Source: Protoeuglena noctilucae (taxonomy: Eukaryota). Taken from it: DNA of 54,115 bases. Both the position numbers and the translations under genes were made by a program. This document shows, in pieces, positions 29,989 to 43,521 of the stretch. The stretch's first letter is position 1, and each line of letters opens with the position of its first letter. Under the pieces are notes generated by a model. It was not told the DNA's origin and ran no database searches. It saw only the letters and a list, made by a program, of their open reading frames with translations. The stretch lies in contig OY253676.1 of the NCBI GenBank assembly GCA_958009085.1, positions 992,001 through 1,046,115 on the forward strand, in the 5' to 3' direction.

Positions 29989-31058
29989 TCACGCTCCCGG
30001 GTAGAAGGACGTCCACCACCCCGTCTTGTAGCGGCCATAGGGCACGGAGCGGCTGAGGTCGCTCTTGTTGCCTGGGAGTTTGGGGGGGAGAGCGACGGAG
30101 TGAGGAGGGTCCTTGTGAGGCAGACGTGGTGGCAACGTGGCAGTGGTGATTGGCAGGACACAGCTGCAGGGCCTGGCACTCATCGCAAACCCCTCATACC
30201 CTCACCCTCGTAGTCGGGCAGCTTCATGTCGCTGGACGCCAGTGCCTCCTCGGGGCTCACGTTGCCCAGCTCCACCAGCGCCACGCGGTCCAGGCGGAGC
30301 TGAGAGGGGGGAAGGGAGAGAGTTGCAGGTGACAAGGGGGCAGCAGGCATGCGTGAAGGGCGCCGCTGCGGTTTATGACCACGCATCCGCCTGCTATTGG
30401 TCTCTTGTTCGACTGCCTCGTTGCAGCGAGACACCAATGCCCTTGCCTTCACTCGCTCACTTAACCATCGCCCACTCCCATCATCTCTCACCTTCATGAA
30501 CTTGACCCACGCCTCGTCTGTCGACACGATGGCCACGGACGGCCGCTGCACGCGGGGGGCCAGGTCGGGGAAGCGGGCGTCGAGCCACGCGGGGTTGGGG
30601 AGGATGTAGAAGTCACGGTCCCAGCCACGCTCCTTGTAGTACCTGGGAGGGGGAGATGGGGATGGTGGATGGGTATGTGACACGAGAGAGGGCTGGCGTA
30701 CGCATATGTCAAATAGAGAGGATATGGAAGGTATACGACGTGCTTTGATAGTCCGTATGTCACTCCCCGCATTGCCACTCTCGCCGCGCTGCCTTGCTCC
30801 TCACCGCAGCCGCTCCCTCAGCTGCTCGGCAAAGGCCTCGTTCTGCAGGTCGTTGAAGAGCCACTCGGCGCTGGTCACGCACGCCATCCACTGCCCCTTG
30901 CGCGCCTGCTCGGGCATGGTGTTGGTCGACCGGCCCTTGGCCTGGCTTGCCTGGTTGGCGGCCTGGTTCGCCGGCGCAGCGGCGCGGCACACCACCGAGG
31001 TCGCCTGCGCGGGACGGAGACGCGCCGGGGTCGGCAGGGTGCGCGCGAATGAAAGCAT
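29989..31058 (-). CDS. YCF54: Ycf54/LCAA (CGL78), auxiliary factor of Mg-protoporphyrin monomethyl ester cyclase, plastid-targeted
   Basis: Transit-peptide-like N-terminus, then SAEWLFNDLQNEAFAEQLRERLR|YYKERGWDRDFYILPNPAWLD...VAIVSTDEAWVKFMK|LRLDRV...PYGRYKTGWWTSF. Confidence 0.93.
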
Positions 31059-32009
31059 GATGAGCTTGCAGTCAGCGCCGAGCGGCCGGGCTGGGTTGGG
31101 ACGGCGGGGGCGCTCGGATGCCCCCGCTCAGAACCGCAGTGTCCGGCCACAGGCAAGCAAGTCGCAGGAGGCCTGGCGCAATCACCCTGGGGCTCGACGC
31201 GGCGCTTACCTGCCGAACAGAAGCGGAGACCGCCACGCGGGCCGGCACTGCCTTCGCGGGGCCGCGAACTGGGGGCAGGTCGAAGGAAGCCAGGGATAGC
31301 AGGCTCGTCAGGGCTCGCGGGGAAGGGAACGATGCAATGACGCGCAAAGAATAATCGCTTTTGCGCATCGACCATCGCAGCAACCCCTCCAGGCACCACT
31401 CACCGCTGGCCTGGGCCGCGATTTGGGAAGGACAGGTGCACGCCTGCATCTTGGCTCTTGCGCCAACACCGGGCCGACCAACGGCTAGTTGAGAAAAGCG
31501 GCGACCAGGGGACGACGCGGCAGCAATGCCGGCGGCTGCAGTCGACCAAGCGAGGCTGGATAAACTCCGAAACTCCGGAACGCTCGGCGCGTCGAATGTG
31601 ACGGGCAGAGGGTCACAAGTACGGTCCGTGGAGGATGGAGTGCCGAGTGGGAGTGCGGGGGAGTGCCATGGAGGCCTCCGGGCGTCGCGCTTGATGCCAG
31701 AGAAAGCCCCGTGTCAGAAGAAGCCGTGTCAAGGCCGCTGAGCCCGCGCATGCGCACTGGTCGTTGTCGTTCGATGCGTTGTGTCTCCGGGCAGCGGGCA
31801 CCCTCGCGCCATCCCTGAGGCCCTCGAGAGCGCGCGCGGTCCCCCGAGAGTGCGAACCATCTGCGCTCCTTCCCGCCCCTGCCCGTCCACGCCAGGGAGA
31901 AGCCGTGTTGCGCAGCTAGCCTGTGGGGTTCACTGTAACGGCGGGGAGACTCGCAGGGGGACAGAAGCGCGGAGACGCGGGGGGCAGGCCCAGCGCCAAA
32001 TACGGACCG

Positions 32010-34941
32010 ATGGGGCGAATCACCGTCGACATGCTCCGCCGGGTGCGTTGCGGTCGCGGTGTTTGCTCCTGCAATTGCAGTTCCCCTTCACCGGGTCTCG
32101 CGCCGGAAGCCCGTTGCTCGAGCCGGGCGAGACGTCCTGCAAGCTTGCCCGGGGCTCCCTCCCGCATCCTCGCGTCTCCCCTCCCCCGCAGCGGGCGGAA
32201 CACAACGAGGGCATGATTACTACGTTGGAGGAGGTGTCTCTCCACCAGCAGAGCATCGAGCGCATTGAGCTGCTCGGCCACGTCTGCCGGCACCTGCGCA
32301 TCCTGTACCTGCAGAACAACTTGATCGGGAAGATTGAGAACCTGCATCGGTTGAAGGAGCTGGAGTACCTCAACATGGCTGTCAACAACATCACGAGGGT
32401 CAGCCGCTGCATGCCGGGGAACGGCGGGAGCCAGGCTGTGCATCTGCGCCGATGCTCACAGTCGCTATCTGTCTGCGCCTGCAGATTGAGAACCTGCAGC
32501 GGTGCGAGAGTCTGCAGAAGCTCGACTTCACCATGTGCTTCGTGGACAAGGTGTGGAGGGGGCCAAACACCGTGCCGGCCGTTTTGTCAGAATAACACAC
32601 CAGCTCCCCACCACGGTAGTCACTCAATCTTTCACTCTCCCCCCGACCCAGGCGGGTCTGCTGACTCTGGCATCCCTGTCTGGCCTGTCCCACCTCCGCG
32701 ACCTCTACCTGGTGGGCAACCCATGCACGGAGTGGGAGGGGTACCGGGCGTATGTGGTGGCCACGCTACCGCAGGTGATGATGAGACACAGCCGATACTG
32801 TGCAGAGCACGTTATGCTGACACTAGCACTGGATAGCACCACACTGCTGCGTTGGGGAGCGGCATCGCTGCTGACAACCGCGGTCGTTGTCAGGTTGACA
32901 TTCGACACTGATGGACATCATTGTTTGCAGTTGGCGCGGCTGGACGGCAAGGACATCAAGCCATCCGAGCGCATCGCGGCGCAGCAGGCGCTGCCAGAAC
33001 TGACGCGGCGGCTGAGGTGGGGAGGGGGGCAGGGAGGGGCAGAGTTGCTACATATGTGCATGGGTGACACTCTCTCTGTGCTTTTTTCAATACAGGGAGG
33101 AGTTGCTTGCTTCTGGCATTGACCCGGACGCGGCGGCTCGCGTGGACAACCAGGGACCGGAGGACGACGATGTGCAGGACCCCGGTCACGTGGACCCAGA
33201 GGTGAGATGAGAGAATGGGGATGGTGATGATCGGATGTGCAGCTTGCAACGTGTCATGAGACGAGGTGCAGGTAGGGATGGGTCTGCCATGCACCGTGCT
33301 GGTATGCGTGACGGTCGGCTACATACAAAGGCGACACCATTCGCCTTTGTCTCTGTCCATCATGCTCATTCACCATTACTCCTGGTCATGTCTCGCAGAC
33401 GGGGGAGTTCGTGCGCCCGTGGTGCCCCGCCACGCGCATTATCGAGCACAGGTGAGAGAGGCACAGGGCATGAGCATGGCGTGTGTGTGAGTGCCGTGAG
33501 CATGAGCATGGCGTGCATGCAACAAGGGGTGTTGCTCTGCACGTGACTCGGTGCATCATTTGTTAATAGTCCCTCCTACACCCGTCGTCCTTTGCAGGGA
33601 GAATGAGGAGCGGGAGCGCAAGGCAGAAGAGGACAGAAAACAGTGAGGACACGCATGGGGGGGCAGGGTGCTGAGCGATTGCATATATGACCACGTTTAC
33701 TCGCCTTACACTGCTGTCATGTCATTCCTCAGCTGTCATCGACAGTCCGCAACCTCACACAGAGCATGTCGCATCGCATGCCGCACCCGTGTTTTGCTGA
33801 CGCCACCCCAGCGCCCGCGCACCCTGTGTATGCACTATAATGCTTCTTCTCATCATCTCAGGAACATGAACAAGCTCTTCGCCGAGGGCCCCAAGCAGCC
33901 CCCTCGTCGGGATGACTTTGACGACATCGCTGAGGGGGAGACGGTGCGGATGCGCAACGAGGGGGGGTACGCCTTCTCACTCGAGGACTCGGAGGTGAGG
34001 GACAATTGCTAGTGAGTGACTGTGTATGATGTATGATAAATGATTGGGGTACGCATTCTCACTCGAGGACTCGGAGGTGAGAGCTGATTGCGACTGAGTG
34101 ACTGTCACCATGTATTATAGTATACAACCCTCTCCTGACCTCACTCACCCCCAACCCCCACCCCCCCACCCCACCAGGACGGCGCCAGCATTGTGCTGGA
34201 GGTGGACGTGGGTCGCTTCGTGGACACCAGCCTCATCAAGGCAGACGTGCGACCCACACTGGTGCGACTGCTCATAAAGGGCCGATTATTGCAATTAATA
34301 TTGCCGGAAGAGGTGCGCGCGGATGACAGCAAAGCAGAGAGGTCTCAGGCGACGGGGCGATTGGTGGTGACGATGCCCAAGGCGGGGAATGGTGGGGAGA
34401 ACCCCATGCTGGCACCTGCGGGGCATCTGAGGGCGGTGAAGGAGGCCAAGAGGAGGGGGAAGGACGTGAAGAGGTGAGGGGGGGGTGGTAGGGGGGTGTT
34501 GTTATTGGTATGAGGAGGGGGAGGGACGTGAAGGAGTGGGTGTGTGTGGGTGGGTGGCGTGGTGAGGGGTGCGGGTGCTGTCGTGGATGCGATGTGGTGC
34601 GGGTTCGTCTGTCAAGCGATTACTGTCTCTCCCTCATGATGCATTATTATACTCTCTAATGGTGCGTACTCACTCCCTTTTACCCCCCCAGGGTACTGGA
34701 GGAGAGGGGCGTGGTCAACTACCGCAACATCGTGGGGGTGAGGCATGCTGTGACATGGCACATGACAGCATATATATGTGCTACGTATAACATATGACAC
34801 GTGCGTGTTGTCTCATCTAGTATCAGCACGCCCCCCTCTTCGCAGGGCAGCAGGGAGGCTGAGGTGGCGCCCGTCCCCAAGGCACGGCTGACGGTGGGGG
34901 AGGGGGAGGGGGAGGGGGATGATGACTTGCCGCCGCTGTGA
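32010..34941 (+). CDS. LRRC6: LRRC6/DNAAF11 (tilB) dynein axonemal assembly factor
   Basis: [37 protein letters not shown]...[14 protein letters not shown]...LYLVGNPC...[26 protein letters not shown], then a CS-like domain ([12 protein letters not shown]...[16 protein letters not shown]) and a C-terminal DDLPPL*. Confidence 0.93.
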
Positions 34942-35131
34942 GGGGCGTGGTTGCGTGATGATATATCCGCATATCGCATATCGCATGGGGGAGTGACCGG
35001 AGAGGCCATGAAAGATTGAAGCGATGCGAGAGAGATGAGATGCGCCAACGGCATATGCAGCGTGACACACAAGCAGCGTTGCATTGCGTGGCACCACACC
35101 GCAACTCCCCCATCTAAGCATCGTCACTCCA

Positions 35132-38100
35132 TCACGCTCCCTCGCTTTTCCCTCCATCCATCCCCTCTGCCCCCCCCATGACGCATGCCCCCCCCTCCCC
35201 CTCCCACGTGGCCTCCCTTGGGTCGCAGGGCTCTGACCCCGTGAAACTGCAAGAAGGGGAGATGATGGTGATATATTCAGTGATGAGAAACCAAGCGAGT
35301 GAGCAACACAATTAACAACGTCAGTGACACAGTCAATGAGCTCATCCGCCACACACACCCACCCACACCCACACTCACCGCCTGTTGCACACGGGGCAGG
35401 GCAGCCCCTGGCACTCCAGCTCGTGGCAGCACCGCAGGCAGCAGGCCGATTGGCGGCAGGGCAGCAGGCGGAAGGCACGGGGCCACTCGCAGCAGAGAAG
35501 GCACAGGCCGGAACCCTGGGGAGTGGGAGACAGGGGTGACTATACGTGTATGGTAAATGGTATGCACCATGATCACAAGCGACGCGACCATCACCATAAG
35601 TAGCAAGTGCAGTGAAGTGGTTGCGCCCTGCTCACTGCCACTGTGTCGCTCCACCCTCACACCCCCTGACCCACACTGCCCATCTCTCACATACAACAGC
35701 AACTCATAGACATCCACCCCACGGCTCACCTCCGGCATGTCCGGGTCCTGGAAGTGGTACACCAAATCGTACCTCCCCCCCGCCCCCACGCGGTAGACGT
35801 TGCTGGTGCCGTCCCTCCACTTGACGCACCACCACCCGTGCCGCACGTGTGGCCCCTCCAGCACCCCTACGATGCCCCTGTCTTGGCCCCCCCACTTCCA
35901 GTCCGCGCCGCGGCGGACGGGGAGGCCGGGGCGGGCGGAGTGGGCGGACACTGGGGTAAGGGGAGAGGGGGGGGATGGGGGGGTGAGTGGATTGGGGGGT
36001 GAGGTGAGTGGAGAGAGACTGGGGGAGTGAGAGATGGGGGATGATGGGGAGGTGCGTGAAAGAGAATAAGGCGGTAAATGCTTAGAGATGGATGCTAAAC
36101 AACCATCCAAACAGGCAGCTGCGTTCCTGATAAGACGACCGATGAATCCATCGCATGCCTGCCCCCGCCCCTCACCCACGTCGTTGTGGCGGGGGCTGCC
36201 GCTGCATGACTTGGCATCCCTGTTGCTGGGATGATTGGCAGAATCCACAACTGCAGTCGTCATTGCCGGGTCGGGTGTGGAGGGGGCAGCACCAACCGCA
36301 CCGTCACTACCCCCACGCACGCGCACGCTGCAAGGGACAAGGGGCGACTGTGCATTGACTAAATGCATGGCCACTGCAGCTTTGGTAGATATGCACATGA
36401 CATGCGAACAATAACAACAACAACGCTAGCAACAACCGCATCCTCATCAGCCCCTCAGTCACCCCACTCGCATCCCTCGCCTGCTGCTGCGCCGCGTGGG
36501 TGGGCCACGGTCACTGGGGCCGTCGCCCGGGGGGGCACGGGGGGTGAATGTGGTGCGGGGGTGGAGAGGTGGGGATGACTGCGCGTCTTGACGCATCAGA
36601 TCATCGATGTCCGCAGAGACAGCAGTTGAGTTGGGGAGAGCGGTTGCAGCGACAGCAGCATGGAATGGGGGAGTGGATTTGTCAGGTGCGGGTGCGGGTG
36701 GTAAGGTGGATGTGGCGGACTCTGTTAGGGTACCCCTGGCAGATGGGATGGAATTGCGTGGCTCATCGCACCCCTCCCCTCTGCTCATGTCTACACACGC
36801 GCCCATTGTAATGCCACCACCCTCGCCACGCCCCTCCCCTGCCACTCTCCCTTCCCCACCCGCACCCGCACCCTCTCCCGCAAACGCAACCCTCCCATCC
36901 CGTGACCCCAACCCCTCATCCCCACCCCCACCATTGCCCTGATCCCTCCCCACACGCCCCCTCTCCCATCTCTCCACCCCTCCCCTCTCCCCCCTCACGC
37001 CCACTCCACCCCCAACCCCCTCCCCCAACCTCTCCACCCACCCCCTCTCTCCCACCCCCACTCTCTCCCCTCTATTCCCCTTCCTCCTCCCTCCACCCCT
37101 CTCTTCCCCATCCCCCACCCCCGCTCTCCTTCCCCCATTACCCCCATCTCTCCCAACCCTCTCCAACCCCCCCCTATCCCCCACCCCCAATCTCCCTTCC
37201 CTTGCACCCCCCTTCCCCCCACCCCTCCCACCCACCCCCCTCCCCCTCTCCCACGCCACCACCTCTTCCCATTCCGGCCCCAGTGCTAAATCCGCATCCC
37301 CCGCCGTGGCCCCCACTCTATACGAATTGACCGACCCATCACTCCACCGCACCCGCCACCACCCGTGCCCATCGGGCTCTATCATCACACCCACCGCGTC
37401 CTCGCCACCCCCCTGCGATCCCCAGGACCAAGCAGGGCCTCTCACCACAAACAGCCCCGGTCTGGCCAGCCACGATGTGACGGGCGCGTTGGGGCGGCGG
37501 CGGGGGGAGGGGTGGCGTGGGGTGGGGGTGGCAGCAGGGACGGCAGCAGGGGTGGCAGCAGGGGTGGCAGCAGGGGTGGCGAGGGCGCGGGTGGCAGCGG
37601 CGAGGATGCAAGTGGGGCAGGTGGAGCGGGGAGAGGGGGAGAGGGGGCGGGGGTGGGGTGTGGGGGAGGAGGGGGGGTGGGTGGCGGTGGGGGGGGGAGA
37701 GGGCATGCGAGGTGGGGCAGTCACTGGTGCTGTGGTGGATGGCACAGTGGCTGTTGCTGTTGTTGATGCTATTATTACATCTCTCTCCGCAGTGCGTGGT
37801 TGCATGTGGGTGTCGGTGTCGTGGGCGATGCGTGACATGGCGCGGCGGAGGGCGGCGGCCATCTGCGGGGATGAGACGAGGGGTGACGTGAATGAGATGA
37901 GATGAGATGAGACAAGTGGGGGTGGCAGTGGAGTGGCATGGGATGAGGCGAGGGCACATGCGGGATGCATGGGACAGTCACTACCTGTACCTGTATCGTA
38001 CTATCCGCCCGTCCCCATCGCCACTCCATATCAATAGTGTCGATACTAACATCCGTCATGCATCCCCTCACATACCATGCACCCCCCCCTCCTTCTCTCA

Positions 38101-40000
38101 CCTCCCCCGCATCCCTGTACCTCTCCTGTACATCTTTCCTCAGTGCCCTGTCCACCACGCGCCGCAGGGGACGGGGCACGCTGTCCCTTGCATGCGAGGG
38201 CCACTGGTGGCGCAGGGAGGGGTCACAGATGGCCTCAAGGGTGCGGAGCTGGGGGGGATGGGGATGGGGTAATATAAGTGATGTGGTTATGCATCACACT
38301 GTTTATTGCATACATCACTTGTCATGGTAGTCTGATACTACGAATACACGCAGACTGCCATGGCATGCTCCGTCGACATCACAGTGTATAACATGCAGCA
38401 TGTCATGACAAGAACACACACGCACAGTGATATGCTCCATTGACATACACGTCTCCCCAGCAGTGTGCCCAGTCTCACCAGGGTCTCCCCCACAAACGGC
38501 CTTCCCCCCGCCAGCGCCTCAAACGCCACCGCGCCCGCACCCCACACGTCGCCACCGGCACCCGCACCAGTGCTTGCATCTGTGTTTGTATCTGTATGTG
38601 CATTTGCACTCGTGTCCCCCCTCACTTGCTCGGGGCTCAGATACCACGCCGTGCCGAAGAGACTCCCCGAGCTGAACAGACCCGCTAGGTCCCCATCCTC
38701 CGCACCACGACCATTGCCGATACTGCTTTTAATAACACCACCGATACTGCCACTGATACTGTTACCAATACCACCACCAATACTGCCACCGATACTGTCA
38801 CCACCACCACCACTGCCGTCGTTGCTGCCACCCCCCGCCCCCTTGCGCATCCCCCTCCCCTCCCTCGCCCTCCGCACCCCCTCTCTCGCTCTCTCCCGCA
38901 CCCCTGCTGCCCACGCGGGCGGGATGGGGCGCGAGAGGGCAGCCGCGGCGCCTGTGCCGAAATCCACCAGCCACGCACGGGGGGGGACGTCCTGTTAGGA
39001 GAAAGAGGGATGAGGGGGTGTGGTGTGAAGACAGCGTGGGGAACACAGCGATAGCGATCGTGGGCGAGGGCAGTGACAGTGATGCTCTAACAGTCACTCT
39101 CCCGACATCATCTCACCCCCTGGTAGTGATGATACTCTAACACTCAACTCTCCCACCGTCACATTCTCTCACCCCCTGTGTTTGCACCACGACATTGGCT
39201 GGCTTGACGTCCCCGTGTGTCAGTCCCTTGGCGTGCAGGGATGCAAGTGCAGTGAGGATGTCAGACAACACAGACGCAGCGTGGGTGAAGGGGAGGGGGC
39301 CGCGGGATGCCAGTATGTGGGACTGGGGGTGAGAGGGGGAGGGGGGGGGGGGGTGGTGACAAGTGCAGGGTGCGGGGGTGGCTGGGTGCGTGTGCGGGGG
39401 TGCAAGTGAGGCAGTCGTGTTTACAAGCAGCCATGGCATGCACATCACTGAATGTATCGCCTAGTTACAGCATGCATAACCATATCTTTCCTGGCCACAC
39501 TTACCAGTGTCTCCCCCCTGACCCTCTCGGTGACAATCACCGAGCAGAGGGGGCGGGCGTGGACGGCCACGTCCAACACGCGGGGGACTGAGAGGAAAAG
39601 GGATCAACATAATGAGAGAATCAAAACGTGGCAGTCACCCATCGCTCACCCGATTGCAAACACCCCATCCCATCCCCCTCACCCGCGCTGCACGCCGCCT
39701 CTGCCATGAGACGCGCCTCGGCAAACGCACGCACCGCACCCTCCTCCGCTTGCATGCCGGACTCAGATGCATGCGGGATCACCTTCACCGCCACCTCTGC
39801 GAGAGTCATCGCCATGCCGGCGTCAGCAGAGCAGTGCTGTGCTGCGCGTGCCACTGCACACGCACGCTCACCCCACGTGCGCGCAGCCCACCTGTCCCCA
39901 GCACCGCGTGTCTCGCAGCCACCACCCACCCGCGGGTGCCCTGCCCAATCATCTCCTCCACCACATATCTGCGGGCGTGGAAGGACAGGCGGGTCGCCAT
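35132..40000 (-). CDS. Ser/Thr kinase (PknB-like, non-RD) + two Mib/HERC2 domains + C-terminal RING-like finger
   Basis: Kinase motifs IGQGTRG, EVAVKVI, HGDVKPAN, LVDFG, GTAWYLSPEQVRG, DVWGAG and RALRKDVQERYRDAGEM. Mib/HERC2 motifs PGLFVVRGPAWSWGSQ...VRWSDGSVNSYRVG and PGLPVRRGADWKWGGQD...VKWRDGTSNVYRVG. RING: CLLC...PCRQSACCLRC...CPVC. The exons join in frame by hand. Confidence 0.78.
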
Positions 40001-40755
40001 CGCAGCAGGTGACTCTAGCCGAAAGTTGGCGCACAGACCGAGAAAGACCACAAATGGGAATGAAGAGGCTAGATTATAATCCGAATTATCGATTGCATGG
40101 ATCGGCGTGATCCCAGGGACCAGCCCGGCGACTCTGCGCCGGTTGTTGCGTGCGGCAGATGTCGTCGCTACGCATCCACGCCCCAGTTTCTGAGCGGACA
40201 CAAGCCTTGCGCTTGCCTGTGACAAATGACATCGTCCGGCCGCGAGAGGGTCGCCCCCCTCGGCGCGGGAGCCGCTTCCGCGCCATCGCTGACATCCATC
40301 GCAGACAACGGCCGACCGCGCCGCCCGCAGGCGCGCACAGGTGCGACTAGCGCCGTCGCCCGACTCTTCGAAGATCAGCAGTGTAATTGCCTGAAAGGGA
40401 CGCGCAAGACATGCGCGATCTCGCCAGACGGGCCCGGGAGCGCCCTGCCAGAAAAGTGCCCATTTCTTTGCCATTCTCATCCAGCTGGCGGCCAGCGCAT
40501 TCCCAGCCCACCGCGCCCATCCAACGTGCGCGGCATCGCGTCCCGTCGCAACTTTAGGCCAACCTAGGCACCGCACAGTGGAAAGAGTCTTTGTCTGCGC
40601 TTGCTTGGGATCCCACACGCTCCCCGCGCCTGCATTAGTGTTTATTTTGAGTTGTAGCTGGCATCCGCTTGCATTGCATAGCTCTACGCTCGACCGGTGC
40701 TCCGAGAGGGACCGTCCCGGGCGCCCCGCCGCACGGCAGCGCGGGTGCGCCCGCG

Positions 40756-43521
40756 ATGGGCGAGGGCGGCGGCGTCGCGAGTGGCTCCGCAGGCAGCGGG
40801 TCGCTCGAGGATGCCCTGGCCGCGGAGCTGTGGTGCGGCGCGGGCGCGGCCGGCAGCTGCACCCATGACCGTGCATGCACATCGCGATGCCCCATTCACC
40901 CCTCGATTCTCCTCGTAGGGGCGCCGAGGATGACGCGGAGGGAGATGCGGCGTCTCCTGGCGTCGTCCCTGCCCCCGCCCCCGACGCCTGCCTTCACCCG
41001 GTGCAGCTGGAGGGCATCTGCACGCACTGCGGGGCGCTGGTGGGGGGGGCGGGGCAGGTGGGCGGGGCGGGGCAGCGATATGCGTGCTGCAGCGTAAGAT
41101 CATTCGCATGCGTCCCTGCTTGCTCCCCTCCCCATGCCTGCAGATGCCGTCTAACTGCCCCACCCTCGCTGTACCGCATCCATTGCTCTGCCCTTCCACC
41201 CTCTCCCTTTCCCCGCATTCCTCACTCTCTCCGCACCCTCCCTTCTCCCACCTAACCTGCCTCACATCTCACTCATCTCCCACTCCCTCTCTCATATCCC
41301 ATCTCTCACTCCCCATCTCTCATATCCCATCTCATACCCCCCACCATCTCCCTCCCCCATACCTCCCCCCCAGTCCGCCGTCCTGCTGGGCCACGTGACC
41401 CCCGGCCTGGCCGCCACCATTGAAGGCGCCGGGCTGCTGCGTGCGATGGGGGCCGCCTCTGCGGTGCGCGAGGGCCGGCTGCACCTGGTGCTGGATCTCG
41501 ACCACACGCTGCTCAACTCGACCGGGGACAGCCGACTGGCGCTGCGGGTGCACGAGAGGGTGGGACTCATGCGCATGCTCAAGGTGGGGAGGGGAGGGGG
41601 GGGTGTTACTATGATACTATGATGGATTTTGATGCTGCCACTGTCGACTAGGAAGTTGGTATCGTGTGCAGGTGTAATGATTGTTATTCGATTGTATATA
41701 TATCTGATATCATTCACTGTGATTCTCCCCACACAGTCGGAGCAGGAGTCTTCGGGGGATGGTCCCGAGGGTCGGTCGCTGTTCTGGTTCCCCAGCACAC
41801 AGAGCGAGGGGATGTGGACGAAGGTGAGAGGGGAGAGTGGGACATGCATGAATGCACATGCGTAGCAACCATAGAGCAGCTACCCTGCATCGCCATCCCC
41901 ACCCCACGCACCTCCTCCCTCATCCCCCCAGCTCCGCCCCGGCGTCCGCCGCTTCCTCCGCGAGGCATCGCAGCGTTTCTCGGTTTCTATCAACACCCTG
42001 GGATCTCGACAGTACGCGTCCGCCATGGCGAGGCTGCTCGACCCCGACAGCCGCACCTTCCGGCGCGTGCTGGGGAAGGAGGACGGGGTGGATGCCTCGA
42101 AAAAGACACTGGCATCGAATCTTGACCTGGATGAGAGGACCACGCTGGTGCTGGACGACTCGCCCGACCGATGGGGGGCGTGCGCCTCCATCGTGGTGCC
42201 CATACACAGGCGAGGGATGCGATTGGGGGGATGAGGGTGAATGGGTGATAGATATAGACATGCATCCATTGTGGTGCCCATACACAGGCGAGGGAGATGG
42301 GCTGATGGGGGTGCATGCATGGGTAATGGTGGTCTATCTTATGCTTGCATGGGTGGTGGTGGTGATGGTGATGGTACCCGTACACAGGCGATGGGTGCAA
42401 CTGCATATTGCAGCAGTCACGCTCTGGTTGCTTGCGTGATGCTCTATGCCACATAATATTCATATTCCCATCCCCACCCACCCAGGTACCACTACTTCCC
42501 CTCCAGCACCCGTGACTTTGGTCAGTCCGAGTCTCTGTGTCACTTGCTGAGGGGGGACGATGAGGCGGAGGAGGGTGGGCCACTGTCGCATGCGCTGCGG
42601 CTGCTGGTGGCCGTGCATGACGAGTTCTTCCGACAGACTAAGGCGGGGGGGTTGCCCACGACCAAGGGGGTGCTGCGGTGAGGAGTGGGGTTGGGGGGGC
42701 AAGTACAGGGGGTGTGAGGGTGCGTGTGATGCGCATGGTTGCATGGCAGTGTTAAGTGCACGGGGTTGATGGAGCCTGTGCTGGGCAGTCAGGGTTACTA
42801 GCAATGTGACGTTAACTAACAGCAACGTGCCCCTCTCTCCCCTCTCCCCCAGTCACTGTCGCCGGGGTGTGCTGGAGGGGGAGGAGATCTGCTTCACACG
42901 CATCATCAGCCTGCGCATGGCGAGTCACGTGTCCTGTGCCATGCCACATGACACACTGCCATTGATAATCACATCCCTGCAGATGTCACGCCATGTTGTG
43001 TCATGTCGTGTCAATCATTGTTCATTCAACATCCATCACCCACTCCCACTCCCCCTCCCCCTTCTCAGCGTGACACCCCCGACCGTCACCCCGAGTGGCG
43101 CCTGGCCCTCTCTTTGGGCGCACGATGCTCCCTCGACCTCACTCCCACCACCACGGTCGTCGTCGCGGGGTCACGGGTGAGCCAGGGGGACTGCTTGCAC
43201 TGTGTGATCGCATGTCATTACATGTTATGAGTCACATGCCATGCCCCTGTGCTTGACTGCTGTTGCTATGCACCCCTCTGCTTACACCACTCCCCCTTCA
43301 CTCACGCAATCTTTGCTTGGATGCAAACAGTTAACAGGTAACAGTTACACCCCATCCCCATCCACCCACCCCCCCAGGGCACCGAGAAGGTCCTGGCTGC
43401 CGAGGCGCGCGGTCTGCCGTGCGTGGGCATTGAGTGGCTGAGGGCGTGCGCGGCGGGGGTAGCCAAGGCAGACCCGGTGCTGTACCCGCCGCCGGAACCC
43501 ACGGACGTGCGGATGCGGTAG
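40756..43521 (+). CDS. RNA polymerase II CTD phosphatase, CPL4/FCP1-like (FCPH + BRCT)
   Basis: CLHPVQLEGICTHCG; LHLVLDLDHTLLNST (DxDxT); TKLRPGVRRFL; LVLDDSPDRW; RYHYF; BRCT-like WRLALSLGARC...GTEKV...IEWLRAC. Confidence 0.9.

Follow-up and report, generated by a model that had tools for sequence, protein, structure and literature searches.

The DNA considered here, the window, is a stretch of 54,115 nucleotides from Protoeuglena noctilucae (contig OY253676.1), and its minus strand carries, from about 40299 to 35132, a gene whose predicted product joins a Hanks-type protein kinase to two MIB/HERC2 domains and a RING-like finger. We consider it reasonably probable, at about 0.6, that the parts form a single nuclear gene of a flagellated alga of the green lineage, and that its product of ~1138 amino acids couples phosphorylation with ubiquitination in the way proposed below. 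Three things are established: the anatomy of the gene, the splicing at seven of its ten introns, and that another protein has its domains in this order. The features of the gene are listed here in the direction of transcription.

40217..40299, minus strand: exon 0, the 5′ coding exon, ending at an RNA joint; in-frame ATG at 40299, product MDVSDG...DDVICH
39969..40216, minus strand: GC-AG intron with boundaries GCAAGC...CCGCAG; RNA joint 39968/40217
39968-39892, 39796-39683, 39587-39505, 39322-39173, 38991-38479, 38248-38102 and 37862 onward, minus strand: kinase exons 1-7
37827..39968, minus strand: protein kinase domain, on exons 1-7
38690..38960, minus strand: low-complexity insert, rich in Gly, Ser and Arg, that lengthens the activation segment between DFG and the P+1 loop
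36463..37862, minus strand: exon 7, with the last kinase helix, a Pro/Thr/Ala-rich linker, Mib1 and a purine-rich low-complexity stretch
37284..37457, minus strand: MIB/HERC2 domain 1 (Mib1), PF06701, E 4.6e-10, 39.7 bits, residues 182-239 of the translation of window 36459-38000, minus strand
35730..36327, minus strand: exon 8, linker and Mib2, behind the in-frame intron 36462-36328 (GTGACT...TTGCAG)
35760..35927, minus strand: MIB/HERC2 domain 2 (Mib2), PF06701, E 8.9e-9, 35.6 bits
35379..35515, minus strand: exon 9, RING-like finger; RNA joint 35729/35514
35132..35246, minus strand: exon 10, C-terminal tail and stop, from the model only, behind an in-frame intron (GTGAGT...TTGCAG)

In the stop-to-stop frames of the region, kinase motifs are scattered over short frames from 40000 to 37800, MIB/HERC2-like sequence lies in two frames and a Cys-rich finger in one. 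The 11-exon model comprises 3417 nt, 1138 codons for amino acids, and is free of internal stops. Nine of its ten introns have GT..AG ends and one has GC..AG ends, and seven of the ten are present as joints in RNA contigs of X1, a metatranscriptome run in which 35% of the stretch's sampled words were found; the intron-rich character claimed by the first-pass annotation is thus borne out. The RNA check covered the region 33500-41500 and compared three RNA runs and one DNA run, and the stretch was also found in four coded DNA runs of one organism. Six of the X1 joints (39892/39796, 39683/39587, 39505/39322, 39172/38990, 38102/37862 and 35729/35514) show CT..AC ends, equivalent to minus-strand GT..AG, while the seventh, 40217/39968, has a GC donor with plus-strand ends CT..GC. 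The consensus introns 38478-38249, 36462-36328 and 35378-35247 have no RNA joint.

The start of the gene had earlier been placed at the ATG at 40000, and this had to be revised: that codon lies inside the RNA-supported GC-AG intron 40216-39969, and an in-frame ATG upstream at 40299 is the presumptive start codon. The 5′ end is nevertheless provisional, because the X1 contig diverges from the window upstream of 40244, leaving a 16-nt loose end. As a separate observation, the ATG at 40000 is itself in frame, and a promoter internal to the GC-AG intron would yield a near-identical kinase N-terminus.

The fusion of the kinase with the MIB part does not depend on splice prediction, because a single exon encodes the last kinase helix (MAAALRRAM) and Mib1 in the same reading frame. 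This exon 7 is a single open frame from 37862 to the donor at 36463, with RNA contigs at 37292-37571, 36507-36771 and 36481-36636. RNA depth is zero at 36971-37237 and 35102-35368, which we have counted as evidence neither way; since 36971-37237 is without RNA cover, an internal intron in exon 7 is possible. The purine-rich part of the exon holds 441 in-frame GT/GC..AG pairs, and among the 25 candidate internal introns listed for exon 7 not one ends in the kind of pyrimidine-rich acceptor seen in the other ten introns; this part may be coding. It contains a low-complexity stretch of GGGGAGG type at 36830-37250, in frame and without RNA cover, short pieces of which match many other contigs of X3, a DNA run of the same organism. 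We infer that exon 7 is joined to exon 8 through the intron 36462-36328. Further downstream, the X1 contig carrying the joint 35729/35514 covers 35385-35514 with zero differences, and without the exon 9-10 splice the frame terminates right behind CPVCNRR.

The spliced kinase scores 162 bits against a 282-position profile built from 64 bacterial-type kinases and covers positions 6-275 of it (270 of 282). Its Hanks-type catalytic core (PF00069) is complete, with the glycine-rich GQGTRG, the VAVK lysine, the alpha-C glutamate (FAEAR), HGDVKPAN, DFG, YLSPEQ, DVWGAG and the subdomain XI arginine (ERYRD), and judging from its sequence the enzyme should be catalytically competent. Because introns split the domain, the Pfam Pkinase model finds only two sub-threshold fragments on single exons (28.8 and 17 bits, the cut-off being 31.7). 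The kinase motifs quoted in the first-pass annotation are all present in the spliced product, YLSPEQVRG and GRPFVGET in exon 5, and RALRKDVQERYRDAGE running into MAAAL across the RNA-confirmed exon 6/7 junction. The kinase belongs to the non-RD type, with HGD instead of HRD. Its activation segment is expanded by ~80 extra residues, the distance from DFG to SPE being 109 residues, whereas 63 bacterial-type kinases have a median of 27 and values from 17 to 51, and RNA contigs run unspliced across 38548-38821 and 38587-38741, that is, across most of this insert.

Both MIB/HERC2 domains lie above the PF06701 gathering cut-off of 33.5 bits, and low-complexity linkers separate the two modules. Mib2 also matches solved MIB/HERC2 domains, namely those of HECTD1 (3dkm, E 1.7e-9) and MIB1 (4xi6, E 1.4e-6). 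When the 10 ORF translations that span the gene were searched with Pfam at E<=0.1, there was no match to ankyrin, ZZ, SH3_15 or any further family. The finger begins 12 residues behind Mib2 with the pattern C-x2-C-x11-C-x-Q-x3-C-x2-C-x10-C-x2-C, and is of the Mind-bomb/IAP-type class. An alignment to the RINGs at the C-termini of seven MIB-RING proteins shows seven of the eight zinc-ligand columns kept, together with their spacing.

In order to see how common such an architecture is, 1.84 billion representative proteins were scanned with Mib2 using HMMER, which gave 641 matches at E<=0.001; the best 150 were taken, 89 of them being scanned with Pfam and all 150 with the kinase profile. Among these best 150 relatives the MIB/HERC2 domain is promiscuous, its partners including RING, HECT, U-box, caspase, PARP, ART, WD40, RCC1 and others. 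A kinase is present in six of them (P0003, P0018, P0027, P0047, P0060 and P0086), and the order kinase-MIB-RING is common to only one, P0003, so that an architecture which might already have been common proves to be uncommon (1/150). P0003 is an uncharacterised protein of 2501 aa with Pkinase at 17-214, several MIB_HERC2 domains and a zf-C3HC4_3 RING at 2443-2490 directly behind the last MIB. Its parts align to those of the window protein in the same order, and the identity is 42% over kinase exon 4, 50% over Mib1 (residues 1600-1670), 55% over Mib2 (the last MIB) and 46% over the RING, and by this last value the window finger is clearly a homologue of RINGs. The two proteins share an N-terminal non-RD kinase, an expanded activation segment (527 residues from DFG to SPE in P0003, which also has HGD), MIB/HERC2 repeats and a RING or RING-like finger behind the last MIB. 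The HGD triplet was considered as a synapomorphy of the two and rejected, since it occurs in 13 of the 63 bacterial-type rows as well. With the frame continuous over 11 exons, the last kinase helix and Mib1 in one exon and the same order in P0003, the earlier proposal of a single kinase/E3-type hybrid gene is supported.

P0003 differs from the window protein in being more than twice as long, in having a canonical RING with its His, and in having more MIB-like repeats (three stretches by Pfam; six regions by tblastn with the window MIB domains). Among its MIB repeats, at ~1060-2360, there is also a repeated 60-80-residue segment of the pattern ...PGxVGxV...W[WY]...A..L..., which has no Pfam name and does not occur in the window gene. 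The remaining kinase-MIB proteins differ in order or partners: P0027 is ZZ-MIB-TKL kinase, P0047 has three MIB domains and then a C-terminal partial kinase, P0060 is MIB-ankyrin-TKL, and P0086 is VWA-MIB-IRE1-like kinase/RNase. P0018 (695 aa) combines a bacterial-type kinase, ~40% identical to kinases of Chloroflexota and Acidobacteriota, with a hydrophobic segment and three MIB/HERC2 domains, and is without a RING. Scans with P0018 gave 80 genome and 79 metagenome loci, all matching the kinase part only, and the MIB profile found a MIB domain in 0 of these 159 loci; this prokaryote-style fusion thus appears isolated. A bacterial kinase-plus-MIB donor module was considered on the same 159 loci and has no support from them.

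Other searches added no further member. A metagenome scan for P0003 gave 250 pattern matches and zero relatives. In the word-indexed protein search, the query of exon 7 linker and Mib1 found zero matches, low-complexity words having probably displaced relatives, and the Mib2 query, limited to 654-2000 aa, gave 35 candidates of which none was significant, so that within these size limits the search turned up no annotated full-length copy of the gene; P0004 of the HMMER set is the raw open frame around Mib2. In the open literature (subscription journals being outside the scope) no description was found of an algal protein with Pkinase, MIB_HERC2 and RING or of an algal PknB-like kinase; PMC2394772, the one paper found to contain both Pfam names, lists MIB_HERC2 just as a hub domain in the passage concerned, and PMC6118397, its PDF supplementary tables lying outside the scope, does not mention MIB or HERC2. 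On present sequence evidence, the architecture is cleanly supported and truly rare, with two sequences known to date.

The surroundings of the gene bear on its nuclear location. Three neighbours were recognized.

30183-30800, minus strand: Ycf54-like gene (Ycf54 domain, E 5e-14)
31742-34474, plus strand: gene for a DNAAF11/LRRC6-like dynein assembly factor (LRR_4 and CS_DNAAF11_C), with several RNA-confirmed GT-AG introns
40512-42231, plus strand: spliced gene for a NIF (CTD-phosphatase-like) protein, with NIF domain

Because these neighbours are spliced eukaryotic genes, the stretch belongs to the nuclear genome of a photosynthetic, flagellated eukaryote of the green lineage and is not a bacterial contaminant. 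The Ycf54-like gene would be a nuclear copy of the chlorophyll-synthesis accessory protein, which fits a green-lineage alga. The DNAAF11-like gene is convergent with the kinase gene, their 3′ ends meeting near 35100-35130, and the NIF gene diverges from it across ~200 bp, where the two probably share a bidirectional promoter region. The GC content is 0.58-0.72 over the window and 0.61-0.65 across the gene.

Two accounts of the ancestry of the kinase have to be weighed. According to the first, which falls a little short of even odds, it is a fast-evolving, lineage-specific eukaryotic kinase whose PknB-like motifs reflect shared Hanks ancestry and retained ancestral C-lobe motifs, with no transfer. 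According to the second, which we hold more tentatively and which would refine the favoured reading, the kinase is of bacterial origin, a member of the PknB family that at an early date became joined to a Mind-bomb-like MIB-RING ligase of eukaryotic type, with introns and low-complexity inserts gained later.

Evidence for the bacterial account comes from comparison with solved structures, a set that is overwhelmingly eukaryotic for the kinase fold. All 13 matches of exon 5 at E<=0.01 are Mycobacterium tuberculosis PknB or PknA, as the claimed PknB-type resemblance of the C-lobe would lead one to expect, and for the last 74 residues of the exon the first 13 of 18 matches are again PknB/PknA; the next two rows, 9ymt and 4eqm, are also among the bacterial top rows of the bacterial control, and RAD53 and two CDPKs come after them at E ~0.08. 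In the P+1 loop, GTAwYLSPEQvRGD of the window aligns with GTAQYLSPEQARGD of PknB, interrupted by a 14-residue insert, and the near identity of GTAxYLSPEQxRGD to PknB speaks against a purely eukaryotic descent. The C-lobe of P0003 likewise finds PknB first, at 51.9 bits compared with 46.5 for MELK. A database search with residues 1-215 of P0003 gave 71 matches, all Ser/Thr kinases, of which just five name an organism, in each case a bacterium, so that none is tagged as eukaryotic; among the untagged matches some have HDOD, receiver, TPR or PASTA domains. The structure ranking does discriminate, because the two controls separate as expected: among the 60 best solved structures for the eukaryote-type kinase P0027 there are 0 bacterial rows, while for the bacterial kinase P0192 rows 1-19 are bacterial and lead PDK1, the best-placed eukaryotic structure, by ~70-110 bits. 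Bacterial kinases lead three independent rankings despite the eukaryotic bias of the structure set, which the account of eukaryotic descent has to accommodate. When the spliced kinase was compared with 221 proteins by phmmer, bacterial-type kinases were also at the top, with up to 77 bits.

The same comparisons carry arguments for the eukaryotic account. The bacterial lead over the best eukaryotic structures amounts to 5-9 bits (~9 bits for window exon 5, a part-domain only), compared with 70-110 for the genuine bacterial kinase. Exon 4 gives a mixed picture, with the eukaryotic Myt1 (27.5 bits) ranked before PknE (26.7 bits) and bacterial structures in 19 of the 60 rows shown; exon 6 alone has no useful match among solved structures; and the N-lobe and catalytic part of P0003 match MELK, OSR1 and Aurora best. 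Over the profile columns, the identity of the window kinase to bacterial rows is at best ~33% (median 28%), against 21-27% for the four eukaryotic control rows, and the searched databases are dominated by bacterial sequences. Seven spliceosomal introns lie in the kinase region and the GC content of the gene is like that of the rest of the window, host-like features that favour eukaryotic descent and from which it follows that any transfer would be old.

In a quick IQ-TREE analysis of 70 rows, the kinases of the window and of P0003 fall among the bacterial sequences, separated from the four controls (SH-aLRT 89 and 85), and pair as sisters with weak support (SH-aLRT 61). Its controls are only four eukaryotic rows, all TKL or IRE1-like, with no CAMK, STE or AGC among them; the kinases of the window and P0003 both sit on long branches (1.32 and 1.18 changes per column), as a fast-evolving eukaryotic kinase would; and the composition of the window kinase is deviant. 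The tree is accordingly not counted as a test of origin. An Atlas look-up, taken as a lead only, has two bacterial clusters nearest (0.93 and 0.90) and a streptophyte cluster at 0.88. Two further candidate markers of origin were rejected: the NCBIfam model PknB_PASTA_kin gives P0003 107.9 bits, but scores eukaryote-type kinases as high or higher (P0027 133, P0060 116, P0086 99), and on the raw score against the bacterial kinase profile P0027 (182 bits) exceeds the window kinase (162 bits).

By these rankings, the resemblance of the C-lobe to bacterial PknB kinases is real and beyond chance, and bacterial kinases are the nearest detectable relatives; a horizontal origin of the kinase is plausible. 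The overall interpretation of the first-pass annotation thus stands as far as a kinase/E3-type hybrid of independent assembly is concerned, while its suggestion of a horizontally acquired kinase is retained as a lead only.

Several observations weigh against the favoured reading of one gene for a kinase-MIB-ligase, and they concern the finger, the transcript and the second protein. The finger reaches 21.9 bits with Pfam zf-C3HC4_3 (PF13920), below the cut-off of 27. Its His ligand column holds a Gln, where P0003, P0006, P0042 and P0068 have His, and the tail behind the last Cys pair is unlike that of related RINGs, which makes a ligase activity doubtful. On the side of the transcript, no RNA contig spans the junction of exons 7 and 8 or that of exons 9 and 10, an X1 contig departs from the window at 36287 with a 255-nt loose end, and a contig of X2 (38307-38556) reads past the exon 5 donor into the intron; a single transcript is beyond proof by contigs. 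The X2 read-through might stem from RNA that was not spliced, or from DNA present in the library. The loose-end sequences at 40244 and 36287 have zero occurrences in the whole 54-kb window, and could come from chimeric contigs, strain differences or distant exons. As for P0003, its kinase is only 28% identical to that of the window over 268 columns, a value that also fits a fast-evolving eukaryotic kinase, and the protein could represent an orthologue from a different alga, a paralogue within this organism or just a predicted gene.

The state of the finger leads to a third explanation, that of a degenerate RING without ligase activity, the protein being then a kinase aimed by its MIB/HERC2 barrels or a regulatory partner of a true ligase. 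The exchange of His for Gln (codon CAA, covered by the X1 RNA contig without difference), the sub-threshold score, and a conserved tail behind C-P-x-C that is absent or unlike that of relatives, in a last exon without RNA support, all favour it, and a strict definition of a RING, with eight ligands and a score above the gathering cut-off, leaves the finger outside. The seven retained ligands with their spacing speak against degeneration, as do nearby extra Cys/His residues (CC...CCH) that might substitute, the 46% identity to the canonical RING of P0003, and an exon 9 that is expressed and correctly spliced to Mib2. On balance we regard this explanation as rather unlikely. The earlier claim of two Mib/HERC2 domains and a C-terminal RING-like finger accordingly holds for the MIB domains, which are above the cut-off and joined in frame, and has to be softened for the finger with its Gln and its low score. 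The weakest explanation, that two genes or transcripts, kinase-Mib1 and Mib2-RING, were wrongly joined in the model, can draw on the missing RNA joint for the intron 36462-36328, the loose end at 36287 and the zero RNA depth at 36971-37237 (listed in its favour, though given no weight elsewhere), but it is very improbable in view of the in-frame consensus intron that links both parts, the RNA covering 36481-36771 in the same open frame where no other long frame is open, and the occurrence of kinase, MIB repeats and RING in one chain in P0003.

If the favoured reading of a single kinase-MIB-finger protein is adopted, a mode of action can be proposed, for which we infer all biochemical activities, and the coupling among them, by analogy. 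The MIB/HERC2 barrels would dock short peptide motifs of targets, as the MIB-ZZ-MIB (MZM) module does in Mind bomb 1; the kinase would phosphorylate the docked target or its own protein; and the finger, if functional, would recruit a ubiquitin-loaded E2. Phosphorylation and ubiquitination would thereby be coupled in one polypeptide, as in plant KEG. In its boldest form, which we consider unlikely as a whole, the proposal would be that a green-algal Mind-bomb-like ligase captured a bacterial PknB-type kinase long ago, giving a lineage-restricted dock-phosphorylate-ubiquitinate machine with two known members, independent of KEG.

Algal genomes are rich in lineage-specific domain fusions. To our knowledge, a kinase and a ubiquitin-ligase module have been found in one polypeptide in few cases only, plant KEG being the studied example. 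If the window gene is independent of it, the coupling of kinase and ubiquitination through MIB/HERC2 docking modules would have arisen more than once, and if the kinase is bacterial, this would be a rare case of a prokaryotic signalling domain, the Hanks kinase, wired into the eukaryotic ubiquitin/proteolysis system. The finger with Gln in place of His would be a natural test of the extent of ligand loss that a Mind-bomb/IAP-type RING tolerates. The practical weight is modest, the family being tiny and the organism a non-model one.

Three known systems invite comparison. KEG, in the description given in passages of PMC11020294, has a RING, a kinase, 9 ankyrin repeats and 12 HERC2-like repeats, the ankyrin and HERC2-like repeats being its substrate-binding modules. 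The window protein resembles it in uniting a RING-type finger, a protein kinase and MIB/HERC2-type repeats in one polypeptide. It differs, as far as KEG can be compared by description only, in the order of the parts, the RING being N-terminal in KEG and C-terminal here (kinase, two MIB/HERC2 domains, RING-like finger), in having no ankyrin match and just two MIB/HERC2 domains, and in its PknB-like kinase; it therefore lies outside the KEG family definition.

With Mind bomb 1 and 2 the window protein has in common the MIB/HERC2 domains and a C-terminal finger of the zf-C3HC4_3 type, and the last MIB and RING of P0003 match the MIB1 structure 4xi6 at E 1.3e-12. According to passages of PMC11887331, which also define MZM and REP, the N-box peptide of JAG1/Delta is bound by the MZM of Mind bomb 1, a module required for function. 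The family is marked by MZM, REP, ankyrin repeats and C-terminal RINGs, a set that the window gene does not contain. By Pfam there is no ZZ between its MIB domains, no REP/SH3_15 and no ankyrin match, while a kinase is added and the finger is without the His ligand.

To the PknB family, as represented by M. tuberculosis PknB and PknA, the likeness consists in the best structure matches of the C-lobe, a near-identical P+1 loop, a full set of catalytic motifs and the HGD triplet found in 13/63 bacterial-type relatives. The window gene differs in being eukaryotic, nuclear and split by introns, in having neither a transmembrane nor a PASTA part, in its long low-complexity inserts, and in an identity of ~33%. 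Taken together, the gene stands outside the KEG and Mind bomb families, set apart by its domain order, by the absence of ankyrin, ZZ and REP parts and by its type of kinase; the independent assembly proposed earlier is supported by this anatomy, with no ankyrin, ZZ or SH3_15 match and a C-terminal RING-like finger, in a protein whose outline is nonetheless similar to theirs.

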